From Nevskiales bacterium (GTDB lineage Bacteria > Pseudomonadota > Gammaproteobacteria > Nevskiales > CAJXLF01): 64,000 bases of DNA. The notes under the pieces are model-generated. The model saw nothing but the letters and a program-made list of their open reading frames with translations, searched no databases and was not told the DNA's origin. Numbering within the stretch: the stretch's first letter is position 1; the number at the start of each line of letters is the position of its first letter. Where the stretch lies: NCBI GenBank assembly GCA_041622995.1, contig JBFJXR010000002.1:68084-132083 (forward strand), given 5' to 3'. Of this stretch, positions 42,516 to 47,452 are shown one piece after another. A program made the translations under genes and the position numbers.

Positions 42516-42592
42516 CGGGGTGTGGCGCAGTCTGGTAGCGCACTTGTCTGGGGGACAAGGGGTCGCAGGTTCGAATCCTGCCTCCCCGACCA
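42516..42592 (+). tRNA. tRNA-Pro (anticodon GGG)
   Basis: CGGGGTGTGGCGCAGTCTGGTAGCGCACTTGTCTGGGGGACAAGGGGTCGCAGGTTCGAATCCTGCCTCCCCGACCA. The anticodon stem is CTTGT/ACAAG and the loop is CTGGGGG. Confidence 0.94.
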
Positions 42593-42864
42593 AATTTTGA
42601 GGCCTATTCAGGCAGCTTACTCAATTATTATTTTCCTACTTTGTATTCGCATTATGTGAATAATTTGTTTTGGCCTGAACTGACAGGGAATTAGGCATAC
42701 ATTGCGCTTCACGTTTGAATTGGCTAATTGCATACTTGCTTCATTCTTGGCCTAATCCTTTTGTATTCATGGAATTTTTTGTGTCTTAAGTGTCATTACT
42801 TTGATGCATGCGATTGAACTGCTAGTATCACTCCGGTCCAGATGAAACTTTAGTTTCATTAGAA

Positions 42865-43410
42865 ATGAATTCGATTTTTGATTTGAAAATACGTATGCAC
42901 CGATTTCTGAAAATTCTGCCGGTACTGGCCATTATCTGGTCATCAAATGCGTTTGCAGTCGGTATCGGTCAACCGGCCCCGGCCTTTGAACGTGTGCCTT
43001 TAATGGGTGGCGAGCCTATAGAGTTAAAGGATTATCTGGGTCAGGTTGTATATCTGGACTTTTGGGCCTCCTGGTGTGGACCCTGTCGTCAGGCAATGCC
43101 GCTCATGAATTCCATGTATCAGGAGCTATCAGGCCAGGGGTTTACAGTGTTGGCTGTTAATCTTGATGCCTATGTTGATGAGGCCTTGAGGTTTATCAAG
43201 CAACACCCGGTTCAATATCCCATGGTTAGAGATACGGGGGGCGTGTTGCCTGAGTTGTATGGTTTAACAGGTATGCCAACAGCGTACCTTATAGATAGAA
43301 ATGGAAAGGTTCGATATATACACCACGGATTCAAAAGAAGCGATGTCGTACGTATTCGTCATGCTGTCGAGAGTTTGCTGGCAGAATCACAATATAAAAC
43401 AGATCATTAA
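42865..43410 (+). CDS. Periplasmic thiol:disulfide oxidoreductase (TlpA/ResA-like thioredoxin fold)
   Basis: 181 aa with a signal peptide and the active site WASWCGPCRQ. Confidence 0.88.
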   Translation: MNSIFDLKIRMHRFLKILPVLAIIWSSNAFAVGIGQPAPAFERVPLMGGEPIELKDYLGQVVYLDFWASWCGPCRQAMPLMNSMYQELSGQGFTVLAVNLDAYVDEALRFIKQHPVQYPMVRDTGGVLPELYGLTGMPTAYLIDRNGKVRYIHHGFKRSDVVRIRHAVESLLAESQYKTDH

Positions 43411-43436
43411 GTGGCGAGACAATCATGGGTGAGGTC

Positions 43437-43661
43437 ATGAAATACATTATTTGCGTAGTGACAAGTGTTTTCCTGCTGACCTTGAGCAGTGGATGTGCAA
43501 TCAAGAAGGTAGAAGCCTGGGAGCGTGGTGATCTTGCCCGTACGGAAATGGCATTTGAACCTGATGCCCAGCAGGCGGCTTACCGCTCACATGTTTATTT
43601 CAGCAAGGAAGCCAGTTCCGGCGGAGCATCGGCGGGTGGTGGTGGATGTGGCTGCAACTAA
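43437..43661 (+). CDS. DUF4266-type small lipoprotein
   Basis: 74 aa from MKYIICVV. Lipobox LSSGC. Contains WERGDLARTEMAFEPD. The C-terminus is Gly-rich and ends GGGGCGCN. A GTGAGG Shine-Dalgarno precedes the 43437 ATG. Confidence 0.7.
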   Translation: MKYIICVVTSVFLLTLSSGCAIKKVEAWERGDLARTEMAFEPDAQQAAYRSHVYFSKEASSGGASAGGGGCGCN

Positions 43662-43670
43662 GGACTATCT

Positions 43671-44894
43671 ATGAGCGCAGGTAATGGGCAAAAGAAGAAA
43701 GCCAGTCGCACACTCATTGCCCTTGCGGGGTCCGCACTGGGCTTGCCGGGTATTTCAGGCAAGGCCCTGGCGGTAACCCAGGGTGAAGCTGAAGTAGACT
43801 ATAGCTATTCTCTTTATCAAGAAGAGGATATGCCGAGGGAGAAACAGTCCGGCGCGACGAGTGATACGGAGCGGTACACCATTGATACACATCAACTCCG
43901 GGTTGTGCGTCCATGGGGTGATACTTACGATCTCACGGTCGATTTACTCTACGAAACCATGTCAGGTGCATCACCCTGGTATGTATTGCCCAATCCTGAT
44001 CCTAATCAAAGTGAAAAACCGTTACAGGTCATGAGCGGCGCGTCTGGCATTGAAGATACCCGTAAGGATGTGCTGGCAAAAGTACGAAAAATTTATGACG
44101 ATTCTGCTGGAGCAGTCTCGCTGGGTTATTCAACTGAAGACGACTACACCTCCGTTAATATGGCCCTGGAAGGTGTCTGGGAACTCGACGACAAACAAAA
44201 AACCGTTACGTTGGGCATCGGAGGCAGTGACGATGACATCGAGCCTGTCGATACGCATCGTTTTCCCGGTCGCGTAGAACATGAAACAAAAACCAGCATT
44301 AGTGCGTATGCCGGTTTGTCTATGGTCATTGATGCCCAGACCATTGTTCAAAGCAGTGTAAGCTTTACCCGTCAAAATGGTTTTCTATCTGATCCCTATA
44401 AGCTGGCATTCGTCTCCGGGACTCTGGTGCAGGACAGTCGCCCAGATGGCCGGGAGCAATTCACCTGGCTTACACGCCTAAGGCGTTTTTTTCCTGAATG
44501 GCTGGGTGCGTTACACGCAGATTATCGATTCTATGATGACGATTGGGGAGTAGAATCGCACACGATTGATCTTGGATGGCATCAGAATTTTTCCGGGCAA
44601 TTGCAGTTGATACCTTCAATCAGGTATTACACCCAGAGTCAGGCTTATTTCTATGCGCCTTATTACAATGCGCCTCGTAATGACAATTTCGCCTCCAGTG
44701 ATTACCGTTTGTCACCTTATGGTGCTTTGAGTTTTAGACTTGATGCTGTCAAGAAAATTGGCACATGGGCCTTCAGGCTGGGTTGGGAGATGTATGACAG
44801 TGATTCCGATCTTGCCATCAAGAGTGTGAAAGTCGAAAACCCGGGGCTGATTGAGTTCAGTAACTTCAGGATAAGTATCAGTAAATACTTCTAA
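43671..44894 (+). CDS. DUF3570-type protein, predicted outer-membrane beta-barrel
   Basis: 407 aa. Signal peptide ending GKALA. Alternating aromatic/polar beta-strand-like sequence. The C-terminus FRISISKYF ends in Phe, like an OMP beta-signal. It contains SGAT (43848-43859) and two SGAS motifs (43962-43973 and 44034-44045). Confidence 0.65.
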   Translation: MSAGNGQKKKASRTLIALAGSALGLPGISGKALAVTQGEAEVDYSYSLYQEEDMPREKQSGATSDTERYTIDTHQLRVVRPWGDTYDLTVDLLYETMSGASPWYVLPNPDPNQSEKPLQVMSGASGIEDTRKDVLAKVRKIYDDSAGAVSLGYSTEDDYTSVNMALEGVWELDDKQKTVTLGIGGSDDDIEPVDTHRFPGRVEHETKTSISAYAGLSMVIDAQTIVQSSVSFTRQNGFLSDPYKLAFVSGTLVQDSRPDGREQFTWLTRLRRFFPEWLGALHADYRFYDDDWGVESHTIDLGWHQNFSGQLQLIPSIRYYTQSQAYFYAPYYNAPRNDNFASSDYRLSPYGALSFRLDAVKKIGTWAFRLGWEMYDSDSDLAIKSVKVENPGLIEFSNFRISISKYF

Positions 44895-44911
44895 TTACGG
44901 GGTTTTGGATC

Positions 44912-45817
44912 GTGGCTGAAAAATTGCTGGAATGGCATTTTTCATTCTTTGCCATGGGCAGTCCATGTCAGTTGCGAATTTACCTTGAGGAAAAGGAAGA
45001 GGCCGAAGAAGTCTCGTACCGGATTCAGAGCGAAGTGGCTCGTCTTGAACAACTCTACTCCCGATATCGGGACGATAGTGTTGTAACAAAAATCAATCGT
45101 TCGGCGGGCAAGGCTGCACTGACAGTCGATCCGGAAACTGCGGGATTACTCGATTATGCTCAAACCGTCTACGAGCAAAGCGATGGCCTTTTTGATATTA
45201 CTTCCGGGATATTACGATCTGCATGGGATTTTAAATCCGGCATATTTCCTGAACCGGTTCAGATTGAAAAAATTCTTCCACTCGTAGATTGGTCAATGGT
45301 TGAATGGAATTCGCCAAATATACGGCTACCAGAAATAGGGATGGAACTGGATTTTGGTGGCTACGTTAAAGAGTATGCTGTTGATGCCGCAGCCAGGCTT
45401 TGTGGTGAACTGGGTGTAAGCCACGGCATGATTGATCTGGGTGGGGATATTCACATTATCGGCCCACATCCCGACGGGAGTGCCTGGCATGTGGGGATTC
45501 GAAACCCTCGTTCACCTGAAGATGCAATTGTAAGTGTGGATTTGCAGTCCGGAGCAATCGCAAGCAGTGGTGATTACGAACGTTTTATGGAAGTTGATGG
45601 AAAGCGATATTGCCATATTCTTAACCCGAAGACGGGCTGGCCATGTGAGGGCCTGGCGGCAGTGGCTGTGGCAGCACCTATTTGTCTTCTGGCTGGCACT
45701 GCGAGCACCATCGCCATGCTGAAAGGTCGAGAGGCTGGGCCTGAATGGCTTAAAGAACTCGGGTTACCGTATTTCTGGGTGGCTACAGACGGTGAATCTG
45801 GCGGTGATCTGGTTTGA
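44912..45817 (+). CDS. apbE: FAD:protein FMN transferase (ApbE family)
   Basis: 301 aa. FFAMGSPCQL, FGGYVKEYAVD, DLGGDIHIIG, and SSGDYERF...HILNPKTG. GTG start. A stop codon at 44882-44884 leaves no room for a signal peptide. Confidence 0.88.
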   Translation: MAEKLLEWHFSFFAMGSPCQLRIYLEEKEEAEEVSYRIQSEVARLEQLYSRYRDDSVVTKINRSAGKAALTVDPETAGLLDYAQTVYEQSDGLFDITSGILRSAWDFKSGIFPEPVQIEKILPLVDWSMVEWNSPNIRLPEIGMELDFGGYVKEYAVDAAARLCGELGVSHGMIDLGGDIHIIGPHPDGSAWHVGIRNPRSPEDAIVSVDLQSGAIASSGDYERFMEVDGKRYCHILNPKTGWPCEGLAAVAVAAPICLLAGTASTIAMLKGREAGPEWLKELGLPYFWVATDGESGGDLV

Positions 45818-45831
45818 CAGGTTGATTTACC

Positions 45832-46281
45832 TTACCAACGATTCTGATTCCACCTCTCCGGGTTAGCCCAATGTTTGGCATTTAGCCAGTCCGGTGTGCT
45901 CTTGTAGTTGTTGATGTCGAAACCATAAAGGGTAAAACCTTTATCTTGCTGTAACTGATGAAAGCCGAGCGATATCGCGTCTTTGGGCGTCCACGGTGCT
46001 GCTTCGCCTAATACCCAGAATACCTTTTGTGCATTAATGTCGCGCATACGTGCGATGAGTGCCTCAGCAGAGGCATGGGTTAATGCGCCGGGTAGATCGG
46101 TGAGTACCGCATAGTCGAAATGCACATTTTCATGCTTTTCAATTTCTGCTTCATCAGGGATGCAGTGAGTGCAGGGCAAGTTCAGCGGCAGGTCATCGGA
46201 GGTGGTTGAGACCCATAACACTGTCGTGGCTGTGTCGGCATCAATATGTTGGCAAATGCCGTTAATTATTTCTGGAGTCAT
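45832..46281 (-). CDS. Conserved hypothetical protein
   Basis: 149-aa ORF with coding-like composition, convergent with apbE. I cannot assign a family with confidence. Confidence 0.5.
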   Translation of the reverse strand: MTPEIINGICQHIDADTATTVLWVSTTSDDLPLNLPCTHCIPDEAEIEKHENVHFDYAVLTDLPGALTHASAEALIARMRDINAQKVFWVLGEAAPWTPKDAISLGFHQLQQDKGFTLYGFDINNYKSTPDWLNAKHWANPERWNQNRW

Positions 46282-46353
46282 GCGAATTTCTTGTCGTGAC
46301 GGAGAGTCGGCCTTCCTGTAGTATACGCGCCCTCACATCGCAAGCGTTTAAAC

Positions 46354-47452
46354 ATGAGCGAAATCAACCATATAAAGTCCAGGATCAAAGCTCTGCAGGA
46401 CCGCTTCGCGGCTCTGCGGAGCTATCTTTGAATACGAAGAGAAGTGTGACCGCCTCGCTGAAGTAGAGGGCGAACTTGAAAATCCCGATGTCTGGAACAA
46501 GCCTGAGCAGGCACAGGAGCTAGGTCGGGAGCGTGCGCGTCTGGAAGCCATAATTCAGCCCCTCAAAACAGCCGCAACAAGTCTTGATGATGCTGCAGAA
46601 CTGCTGGATATGGCAGTTGAAGAAGGGGATGATTCAGCAGTCGCGGAAATTGAATCCGAAGTGACAGAGTTTGAGGCCGCTGCAGATAAACTTGAATTCC
46701 AACGCATGTTTTCCGGTGAAGCTGATACCTGTAATGCCTTTCTTGATATTCAGGCAGGGTCCGGCGGTACTGAAGCGCAGGACTGGGCAGAAATGATTTT
46801 GCGTATGTATCTGCGCTGGGGCGAGGCGCATGGCTACAAAACCGAGCTGACTGAATGTTCTTCAGGCGATGTAGCGGGAATCAAAAGCGCCACCATTCGT
46901 TTTGAGGGTGACTATGCTTTTGGCTGGTTGAGGACAGAAACGGGTGTGCATCGTCTTGTACGCAAATCGCCTTTTGATTCAGGCGCACGTAGACATACAT
47001 CATTTGCATCCGTATTTGTTTCTCCGGAAATCGATGACAGCTTCGAGGTTGAGATTAACCCGGCTGATCTCAGGGTGGATGTCTATCGTGCCAGTGGCGC
47101 CGGTGGGCAGCATGTGAACCGTACCGAATCAGCCGTGCGTATCACGCATGAACCGACCAATATTGTGGTTCAATGTCAGAGCGAGCGATCACAGCATCAA
47201 AATAAAGACCGATGCATGAAACAGCTGCGGGCCAAGCTTTATGAGTTTGAAATGCAGAAGCGCCGCGCCGACCAGCAAGTAATTGAAGACAATAAGGCGG
47301 ATATCGGCTGGGGCAGCCAGATACGTTCTTACGTGCTGGACCAGTCGCGCATCAAGGATTTACGTACTGGCGTTGAAACCGGTAATACACAAGCGGTACT
47401 TGATGGGTCGCTTGATCAGTTTATTGAAGAAAGTTTAAAGCAGGGTCTCTAG
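46354..47452 (+). CDS. prfB: Peptide chain release factor 2, expressed through a programmed +1 frameshift: join(46354..46428, 46430..47452)
   Basis: Frame 0 reads [25 protein letters not shown] and then TGA at 46429-46431. The slippery site is CGGAGC-UAU-CUU-UGA. The +1 frame continues [34 protein letters not shown]...MAVEEGDD into the 46610 ORF. SPF and GGQ (SGAGGQHVN) motifs are present. Total length is 365 aa, the same as E. coli RF2. Confidence 0.93.

Follow-up and report, generated by a model that had tools for sequence, protein, structure and literature searches.

A published type of DUF3570 flavinylation cassette in a Nevskiales bacterium combines a predicted outer-membrane barrel with an ApbE that lacks an export signal

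How can a protein destined for the cell envelope obtain covalently bound flavin when the enzyme encoded beside it has no export signal? This question is raised by a four-gene cassette at positions 42865-45817 of a stretch of 64,000 nucleotides from a Nevskiales bacterium (GenBank assembly GCA_041622995.1, contig JBFJXR010000002.1, positions 68,084 to 132,083 of the forward strand), which is called the window below. The cassette encodes a TlpA-like thiol-disulfide oxidoreductase, a small DUF4266 lipoprotein, a DUF3570 protein and an ApbE-family FAD:protein FMN transferase (FAD, flavin adenine dinucleotide; FMN, flavin mononucleotide). The best overall explanation, which we consider probable, is that this is a published cassette in which DUF3570 is flavinylated in the cytoplasm before export, is delivered by the general secretory (Sec) pathway and the β-barrel assembly machinery (BAM), and receives electrons at its flavins through a thiol relay.

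The four genes are co-directional on the plus strand, as are all features below unless stated otherwise, and are separated by 14, 9 and 17 nucleotides in the map of open reading frames (ORFs). The first (42865-43410) encodes a periplasmic oxidoreductase of the TlpA/ResA/DsbE-like type with 181 residues (Pfam AhpC-TSA, Redoxin and Thioredoxin_8, E = 5e-25), and the second (43425-43661) encodes the DUF4266 lipoprotein (PF14086, E = 1e-21). DUF3570 (43671-44894) has 407 residues and ends in SKYF (PF12094, E = 1.4e-69, 235 bits against a cut-off of 25); ApbE (44912-45817) starts with GTG and has 301 residues (PF02424, E = 1.9e-76, 258 bits). Two other assemblies, in which genes were called independently, have the same four proteins, including the 301-residue ApbE.

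Méheust et al. (2021; eLife 10:e66878; PMC8238504) recognised that DUF3570 accompanies 'orphan' apbE genes and reported two conserved [S/T]GA[S/T] motifs in 228 DUF3570 proteins. DUF3570 of Chlorobium luteolum acquires covalent flavin when co-expressed with its cognate ApbE, and the flavin is lost only once the serines of both conserved motifs are mutated; the signal-less protein is flavinylated in the Escherichia coli cytoplasm despite being insoluble (PMC8238504). The published clusters combine ApbE and DUF3570 with a thioredoxin-like protein and a DUF4266 protein whose C-terminal CXC is strongly conserved; 227 of them include DsbD (PF02683) and 316 do not, and in the authors' view they may form a hybrid thioredoxin/flavin electron-transfer system that could have a link to iron (PMC8238504). 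The window has a PF12094 protein with the two conserved motifs, an adjacent ApbE, a thioredoxin-like protein and a DUF4266 protein with the CXC, and is without the optional DsbD in the cluster. The locus is an ordinary member of the published cassette and belongs to the subtype in which DsbD is not encoded in cis.

The pairing of DUF3570 with ApbE, the two motifs, the thioredoxin-like partner and the CXC of DUF4266 were thus all reported, with experiments in support, in 2021. The initial annotation had suggested that DUF3570 may be an ApbE substrate and may join the thioredoxin-fold protein and Cys-rich DUF4266 in an uncharacterised redox module; the first part is supported by the C. luteolum homologue, but the module had already been described (PMC8238504). 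The portion of the text of PMC8238504 that was available to the search makes no mention of a β-barrel or outer-membrane location of DUF3570, or of a missing ApbE signal peptide. A 2025 review of ApbE does not mention DUF3570 (PMC12052999), and the signal-less ApbE of DUF3570 cassettes is not addressed in the literature that could be searched.

Three SGA[T/S] motifs had been noticed in DUF3570, together with the proposal that the protein is multiply flavinylated. The motifs are exactly where they had been placed (SGAT at 43848-43859, SGAS at 43962-43973 and SGAS at 44034-44045). Three motifs in a protein of 407 residues exceed chance, the background being 2 [ST]GA[ST] matches in ~17,100 residues of the other window ORFs of at least 250 residues, or ~0.05 per 407 residues; the excess is explained by two conserved sites and one extra motif. 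Conserved site 1 (E-T-M-S-G-A-S, residues 95-101, 43953-43973) and conserved site 2 (Q-V-M-S-G-A-S, residues 119-125, 44025-44045) have Ser101 and Ser125 as the predicted FMN acceptors. In an alignment of 120 DUF3570 homologues, which also served for the E95-P102 and C-terminus counts, residues 98-101 read [ST]GA[ST] in all 120, with E95, G99, A100 and P102 invariant, and residues 122-125 do so in 114; Met precedes the motif in 117 and 118 of the 120 at the two sites. An exhaustive profile search (E <= 1e-3) gave 3148 DUF3570 clusters at 50% identity, and 135 diverse representatives were taken as the full-length members from the best 150 of these. Both canonical motifs are present in 93 of the representatives, one in 36 and only variants in 6. 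One of the two validated sites of C. luteolum DUF3570 is the counterpart of conserved site 1 (PMC8238504).

The remaining SGAT (residues 60-63, context EKQSGATS) falls in the variable loop L1, in a variable, gapped stretch of the alignment, and is present in only 2 of the 120 homologues and 2 of the 135 representatives, which rules out a third conserved flavinylation site. Multiple flavinylation, as initially proposed, is therefore predicted for the second and third motifs, which are kept in homologues, but not for the first. DUF3570 proteins with three motifs number 4 in 120, about the chance rate, and judging from the alignments the SGAT is probably a chance or lineage-specific extra motif, with chance as its most likely source. 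All three motifs might nevertheless be flavinylated in this particular organism: the E-K-Q-S-G-A-T of the extra site puts an acidic residue at the canonical Asp position, as does E-T-M-S-G-A-S of site 1, L1 adjoins the loop L2 described below, and a short motif suffices for ApbE (PMC12052999). However, the frequency of this SGAT equals the chance expectation, and it is preceded by Gln, whereas both conserved sites, which read [E/Q]-x-M-S-G-A-[S/T], have Met. Modification at residues 60-63 is thus considered unlikely, and two flavins per protein are assumed in what follows.

The cassette is conserved as a unit. A scan of one genome per species gave 80 related loci, mainly from Nevskiales, Salinisphaerales, Spongiibacteraceae and Myxococcota. 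The order TlpA-DUF4266-DUF3570-ApbE occurs in ~65 of these at 41-63% DUF3570 identity, the closest relative being in a Salinisphaerales metagenome-assembled genome (MAG; 63%), and the same order is found in distant representatives at ~30% identity. A TlpA-like homologue occupies the same position in 75 of the 80 loci, DUF4266 is directly upstream of DUF3570 in 79, and ApbE is near DUF3570 in 66 of the 76 loci with enough downstream sequence (87%). The co-localisation of ApbE and DUF3570, which the initial annotation had proposed to examine statistically, is thus conserved, including at the distant loci. No further conserved neighbour was found among the 80 loci, except for a DsbD-like ORF in 17.

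Some loci depart from this layout in detail. In one distant variant (L091:3969-10007), a 266-residue protein with weak cytochrome-like matches is followed by DUF4266, DUF3570, a signal-less ApbE, a Redoxin protein and a RoxA-like cytochrome c of 735 residues; in another, also distant (L089:87-2198), an iron-sulfur protein of the CbiX/CDGSH type comes after DUF4266 and DUF3570, and ApbE is missing from the vicinity. In the window, DUF4266 and DUF3570 share one reading frame (43425-44894), in which a single TAA and three codons lie between them (GCGCN*GLSM), and such a single-stop, in-frame arrangement is present in ~11 of the 80 loci.

The beta-barrel-like character that had been suspected of DUF3570 is borne out by structural modelling. 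An AlphaFold2 model built from a 50-sequence alignment has a mean predicted local distance difference test score (pLDDT) of 87.2 and a predicted template-modelling score (pTM) of 0.85, and only residues 1-35 are disordered (pLDDT <50). DSSP assigns 16 long strands to the model, in which short turns of 2-5 residues alternate with mostly long loops; on the long side, six loops have 14-27 residues and two have only 2 and 4. Foldseek matches in the PDB are outer-membrane barrels only, among them BcsC, PelB, OmpG, Occ and TonB-dependent receptors (best E-value 2e-10, probability 1.00, TM-score ~0.5). The C-terminal SKYF (44880-44891) provides the terminal aromatic residue typical of the outer-membrane-protein β-signal, and Phe is C-terminal in 106 of the 120 homologues. 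With this barrel pattern, the terminal aromatic residue and an export signal recognised by eye, DUF3570 is predicted to be a 16-strand outer-membrane β-barrel, and the barrel is modelled with confidence.

The model also bears on the position of the acceptor residues. Ser101 ends strand β3 (residues 86-99) and Ser125 precedes strand β4 (residues 127-141), so that the two flank loop L2. The termini and short turns of outer-membrane proteins face the periplasm as a standard rule. By this rule, Ser101 and Ser125 would lie at the base of the 27-residue L2, on neighbouring strands and on the extracellular or lumen side.

The N-terminal signal-like region of DUF3570, MSAGNGQKKKASRTLIALAGSALGLPGISGKALA (43671-43772), comprises a basic n-region, an h-region and an A-L-A cleavage site, as judged by eye. 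Its core, TLIALAGSALGLPG (residues 14-27, 43710-43751; consensus ALLALT[AS][SA]ALALPG), is conserved in the 120 homologues and in representatives at ~30% identity; some homologues with the conserved core have no basic n-region. Cleaved Sec signals are not usually so well conserved, which hints at a step of specific recognition. Twin-arginine translocation (Tat) of a folded, flavinylated DUF3570 was considered as an export route and rejected: the S/T-R-R-x-F-L-K motif before the h-region is absent from the window protein, which has KKKASR instead, only 19 of the 120 homologues have RR at a distance of up to 8 residues from the h-region, and a β-barrel outer-membrane protein is an implausible Tat cargo.

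ApbE has a PF02424 domain and is similar to solved ApbE structures, but the N-terminal lipoprotein signal usual among the characterised periplasmic members of the family is missing. The window protein has no signal peptide or lipobox and starts 14 residues before the conserved F-A-M-G-S. An in-frame TAA stop (44882-44884), 27 nucleotides before the GTG at 44912, excludes an N-terminal extension, so that a signal peptide cannot be encoded, as the initial annotation had recognised. In 67 cassette loci, the furthest plausible ApbE start is typically 10 residues before F-x-A-M-G, with no hydrophobic N-terminal region, and ApbE is equally signal-less in four distant cassettes, down to ~30% DUF3570 identity. 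A hidden or mis-called start was accordingly rejected, the upstream stop being joined by a short N-terminus in 71 of 71 cassettes; longer upstream ApbE frames occur in high-GC loci only, overlap the DUF3570 gene and contain no hydrophobic segment. The 120 closest ApbE relatives, from independent gene calls, have 286-357 residues and a modal N-terminus of 10 residues. Solved ApbEs with truncated signals align from query residue 7-11 onward (from residue 11 for 7ESA, 3e-43, and 1VRM, 5e-38), and the NCBIfam model of E. coli ApbE aligns to the window protein only from profile position 41. As the other three cassette products all carry export signals, a cytoplasmic ApbE appears to be a conserved design feature. 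The question of the compartment in which the modification takes place, which had been posed as a puzzle, is thus a valid one and concerns a conserved trait of the cassette.

Alignment of the window ApbE with 7ESA, 1VRM and E. coli ApbE identifies the motifs SSGDYER, with Ser219, and HILNPKTG, with His235 at the general-base position (45563-45637); Ser219 and His235 are at least 95% conserved in the 120 ApbE homologues. The proposed catalytic triad of ApbE is Ser241, His257 and Asp285 in Vibrio cholerae (PMC12052999). Its third member is absent here: in the segment A-G-T-A-S-T (45692-45709), Gly262 stands at the canonical Asp position, while Thr266 is kept. Opposite Gly262 in the alignments stands the Asp of ADALST in TM1553, of DGDGLST in FmnB and of EADAWDT in E. 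coli ApbE, as well as that of Salmonella ApbE; the equivalents are Asp285 in V. cholerae and Asp301 in FmnB. At least 95% of the 120 cassette-type ApbEs have Gly here. Also, Asn238 in H-I-L-N-P (45614-45637) stands where canonical ApbEs have Asp, and is Asn in 94 of the 120 homologues. Cys19 and Cys258 are at least 95% conserved among cassette-type ApbEs.

The following sequence of events would answer the question raised by the locus. ApbE, having no export signal, would stay in the cytoplasm and, with FAD and Mg2+, attach FMN by phosphoester bonds to Ser101 and Ser125 of the unfolded DUF3570 precursor before Sec export. This chemistry has been shown for the homologue, the sites are assigned by homology, and the cytoplasm is the presumed compartment. 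Modified DUF3570 would then be exported post-translationally via SecYEG and folded by BAM into the 16-strand outer-membrane barrel, as the model and the terminal Phe suggest, and its strand pattern would make the two flavins neighbours at the base of L2, facing either the cell exterior or the lumen. A periplasmic ApbE anchored in the inner membrane would not reach sites on the outer loop of a barrel that has already folded. Modification before export has a precedent in the cytoplasmic glycosylation of Sec-exported adhesins and autotransporters. Cytosolic ApbEs exist in Klebsiella pneumoniae, where localisation sets specificity, and a seven-residue motif is enough for ApbE action (PMC12052999); the open SecYEG channel passes rigid adducts up to ~2.4 nm (PMC6028853).

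The cassette ApbE might instead reach the periplasm by a non-classical route, through an unrecognised internal signal or by co-export with a partner, and act there. This idea draws only on the general expectation that ApbE works where its substrate ends up, and on the unusually conserved N-terminal segment of DUF3570, which hints at special handling. It is opposed by the absence of a hydrophobic N-terminal segment or lipobox from the 71 cassette ApbEs, by the absence of a twin-arginine motif from both DUF3570 and ApbE, and by the fact that folded passengers are not carried by Sec, and is thus regarded as very improbable.

Electrons for the flavins would come from the first two gene products. 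The TlpA-like protein has a likely Sec signal, judged by eye only (MHRFLKILPVLAIIWSSNAFA, 42895-42957), and WCGPC as its redox-active CxxC (43072-43086); a CxxC (CGPC, CAPC, CPPC and others) is present at this position in 68 of 75 TlpA-like homologues. The thioredoxin fold, the CxxC and the export signal place it among the TlpA/ResA/DsbE oxidoreductases, whereas its NCBIfam ResA, TlpA and DsbE matches are all below the cut-offs, so that no equivalog is assigned. DUF4266 has 78 residues if translation starts at the first ATG and 74 if it starts at the ATG of 43437; the mature form has ~55. Its lipoprotein signal peptide, MKYIICVVTSVFLLTLSSG-C (43437-43496; lipobox Cys at 43494-43496), is followed by Ala at +2. 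Nearly all of the 79 DUF4266 homologues have a hydrophobic segment followed by [AGS]-C at the lipobox position, and most carry A, S, T or G at +2. The Gly-rich C-terminal tail GGGGCGCN (43635-43658) contains a C-G-C vicinal dithiol, a candidate shuttle disulfide; a C-terminal CxC is present in 79 of 79 homologues and 75 end in GCGCN. Pfam and the sequence thus confirm both the WCGPC thioredoxin-fold protein and the Cys-tailed lipoprotein of the initial annotation, and the tail for which an alignment had been suggested is conserved.

According to the published hypothesis, the periplasmic CxxC of the TlpA-like protein would undergo thiol-disulfide exchange with the C-G-C tail of DUF4266, here taken as an outer-membrane lipoprotein; the electrons would go on to the flavins and from these to an acceptor located at the outer membrane or beyond it. 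A DsbD or CcdA from another locus would maintain the TlpA-like protein in its reduced state. In 17 related loci, mostly of Myxococcota-type MAGs, a DsbD-like membrane protein of ~650-840 residues is encoded directly upstream of tlpA (L015, L029, L036, L040, L043, L045, L054, L056, L059, L061 and L065 are among them). It contains an internal segment with PCVLP and a C-terminal thioredoxin module with WCVTCK, and is missing from most gammaproteobacterial loci, including the window.

Electrons might also flow in the reverse direction, in an Erv-like, flavin-dependent system that generates disulfides by oxidising thiols: from periplasmic thiols to TlpA, to the C-G-C shuttle of DUF4266, to the flavins and finally to oxygen or an external oxidant. 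A Gly-rich C-G-C tail near a flavin would resemble the flexible shuttle-cysteine tails of the Erv family, such as that of Erv2p with its C-terminal C-G-C. Shuttle cysteines have also been described in Erv1 (PMC4019985). The invariance of the CxC tail (79/79) and the absence of a DsbD gene in cis from the scanned neighbourhood in the window would fit this direction as well. However, TlpA-, ResA- and DsbE-type proteins are usually reductants, and a DsbD-like supplier of reductant is directly upstream in the 17 related loci. The DsbD of the 227 published clusters likewise indicates reductive flow (PMC8238504), and an oxidative direction seems rather improbable. Reductive flow toward the flavins is the preferred direction.

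Several points weigh against cytoplasmic flavinylation followed by Sec/BAM delivery and a thiol relay. The placement of L2 on the outer side comes from strand order and the rule on termini, not from coordinates. No direct precedent was found for Sec export of a natural substrate with two anionic FMN groups. The C. luteolum ApbE may or may not be signal-less, as the report speaks of a 'similar cloning strategy' to that of a signal-truncated construct (PMC8238504). The checked parts of the 64-kb window show no acceptor and no DsbD or CcdA gene; for DsbD, this result covers the neighbouring genes scanned with Pfam. No ApbE is nearby in 10 of the 76 informative loci, in which both motifs are kept. 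Finally, Gly takes the place of an Asp that is canonical for the active site and Mg site, so that, to judge from the alignment, the chemistry of cassette ApbEs may differ in detail.

The last two points would suit flavinylation in the periplasm by another ApbE, of the lipoprotein type, whose gene would lie elsewhere (beside nqr or rnf, for example) and which would act on the unfolded intermediate after Sec export; the signal-less cassette enzyme would then have a cytoplasmic target or another role, such as FAD hydrolysis or a chaperone-like function. The 10 loci without an adjacent ApbE suggest that an ApbE in trans can suffice, Gly262 could mean altered activity, and most characterised ApbEs are periplasmic lipoproteins that act on secreted targets (PMC12052999). 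Yet ApbE is directly downstream in 87% of loci, across ~30-100% identity, which argues for a dedicated partnership, and the cognate ApbE is sufficient to flavinylate DUF3570 in E. coli (PMC8238504). In addition, Ser219 and His235 are retained in cassette ApbEs, and the whole 64-kb window contains no second ApbE, nor a second TlpA, DUF3570 or DUF4266 homologue. Periplasmic modification by another ApbE thus appears improbable, and modification of the precursor by the cassette ApbE in the cytoplasm is preferred.

A more far-reaching proposal is offered only tentatively. A dedicated cytoplasmic ApbE would flavinylate the barrel precursor ahead of Sec, the conserved N-terminus of DUF3570 might aid the hand-over, and the two FMN groups on the outer or lumen side would constitute a heme-free outer-membrane electron conduit fed by the relay from TlpA to the C-G-C of DUF4266. 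If the modification is cytoplasmic, it would count among the few examples of a redox cofactor attached covalently ahead of Sec/BAM export, and would suggest a new heme-free route for electrons across the outer membrane. To the published system, the present analysis adds a correction from three sites to two, the barrel topology and the universality of the signal-less ApbE in the cassettes examined; the conflict between a signal-less ApbE and an exported outer-membrane substrate is thereby turned from a puzzle into a specific, testable hypothesis.

The surroundings of the cassette are of housekeeping type. Its upstream boundary is a tRNA-Pro(GGG) gene (42516-42592; ARAGORN and sequence), followed by an AT-rich spacer of 272 nucleotides; ORF map, tRNA scan and Pfam all agree with the four packed genes that had been described behind this tRNA. 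The flanks include pheST, ihfA, prfB, lysS, recQ and sdh (ORF map and Pfam), and the neighbours of the cassette are tRNA-Pro, DUF6231, prfB, lysS, DUF3228 and recQ. A perfect palindrome, ATGAAAC-TTTA-GTTTCAT (42842-42859), ends 5 nucleotides before the tlpA ATG and may serve as an operator or form a hairpin in the mRNA; it occurs only once in the window and is absent upstream of the cassette in two related loci (L001 and L002). A Fur box upstream of tlpA was sought and rejected: the best match, 11/19, equals the window background, and none is near the palindrome. Downstream, a DUF6231 gene on the minus strand (45832-46281) converges on apbE with a gap of only 14 nucleotides; its position beside the cassette is not conserved among the 80 related loci. 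The prfB gene (46352-47452) shows the classical programmed +1 frameshift of release factor 2, frame 0 stopping at CTT TGA (46426) after 25 residues and the protein resuming in the +1 frame.

Comparison with known systems places these features in context. The system of Méheust et al. (2021) shares with the window ApbE, DUF3570, a thioredoxin-like protein, DUF4266 with a C-terminal CXC and two conserved [S/T]GA[S/T] sites. The differences are that the thioredoxin-like protein belongs to PF13899 in that system and to the AhpC-TSA/Redoxin (TlpA) type here, and that the window DUF3570 has an additional, non-conserved SGAT. The periplasmic lipoproteins ApbE and Ftp of E. coli, Salmonella, V. cholerae and Treponema pallidum (PDB 2O18, 3PND, 6NXI and 4IFU) share the fold of the cassette ApbE, the Ser and His of the triad, GDYER and H-I-L-x-P-x-T-G. 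Unlike these, the cassette ApbE has no signal or lipobox, has Gly for the Asp equivalent to V. cholerae Asp285 and Asn for the Asp of HILDP, and scores 115 bits against a cut-off of 498 with the NCBIfam equivalog of E. coli ApbE. The cytoplasmic ApbE of K. pneumoniae (Bertsova et al., 2014, as summarised in PMC12052999) is likewise signal-less, with the compartment setting specificity; however, its substrate is a soluble cytoplasmic fumarate reductase, whereas that of the cassette enzyme bears an export signal and is predicted to be an outer-membrane protein.

Erv/ALR sulfhydryl oxidases may offer an analogy for DUF4266, having a flexible tail with close cysteines able to exchange electrons with a flavin, but there is no homology, the cassette has its cysteines and flavin on separate proteins, and its flavin would be covalent FMN rather than FAD. 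BcsC and PelB (16 strands) and OmpG (14 strands) share the barrel fold with DUF3570 at ~10% identity; DUF3570 differs from them in having no link to polysaccharide export and in carrying covalent-flavin motifs in L2. Speculatively, DUF3570 may resemble the MtrCAB porin-cytochrome conduits in concept, as a barrel that holds redox cofactors across the outer membrane; in MtrCAB, hemes are carried by separate proteins inside a 26-strand barrel, whereas in the DUF3570 cassette the flavins would be bound covalently to the barrel itself.

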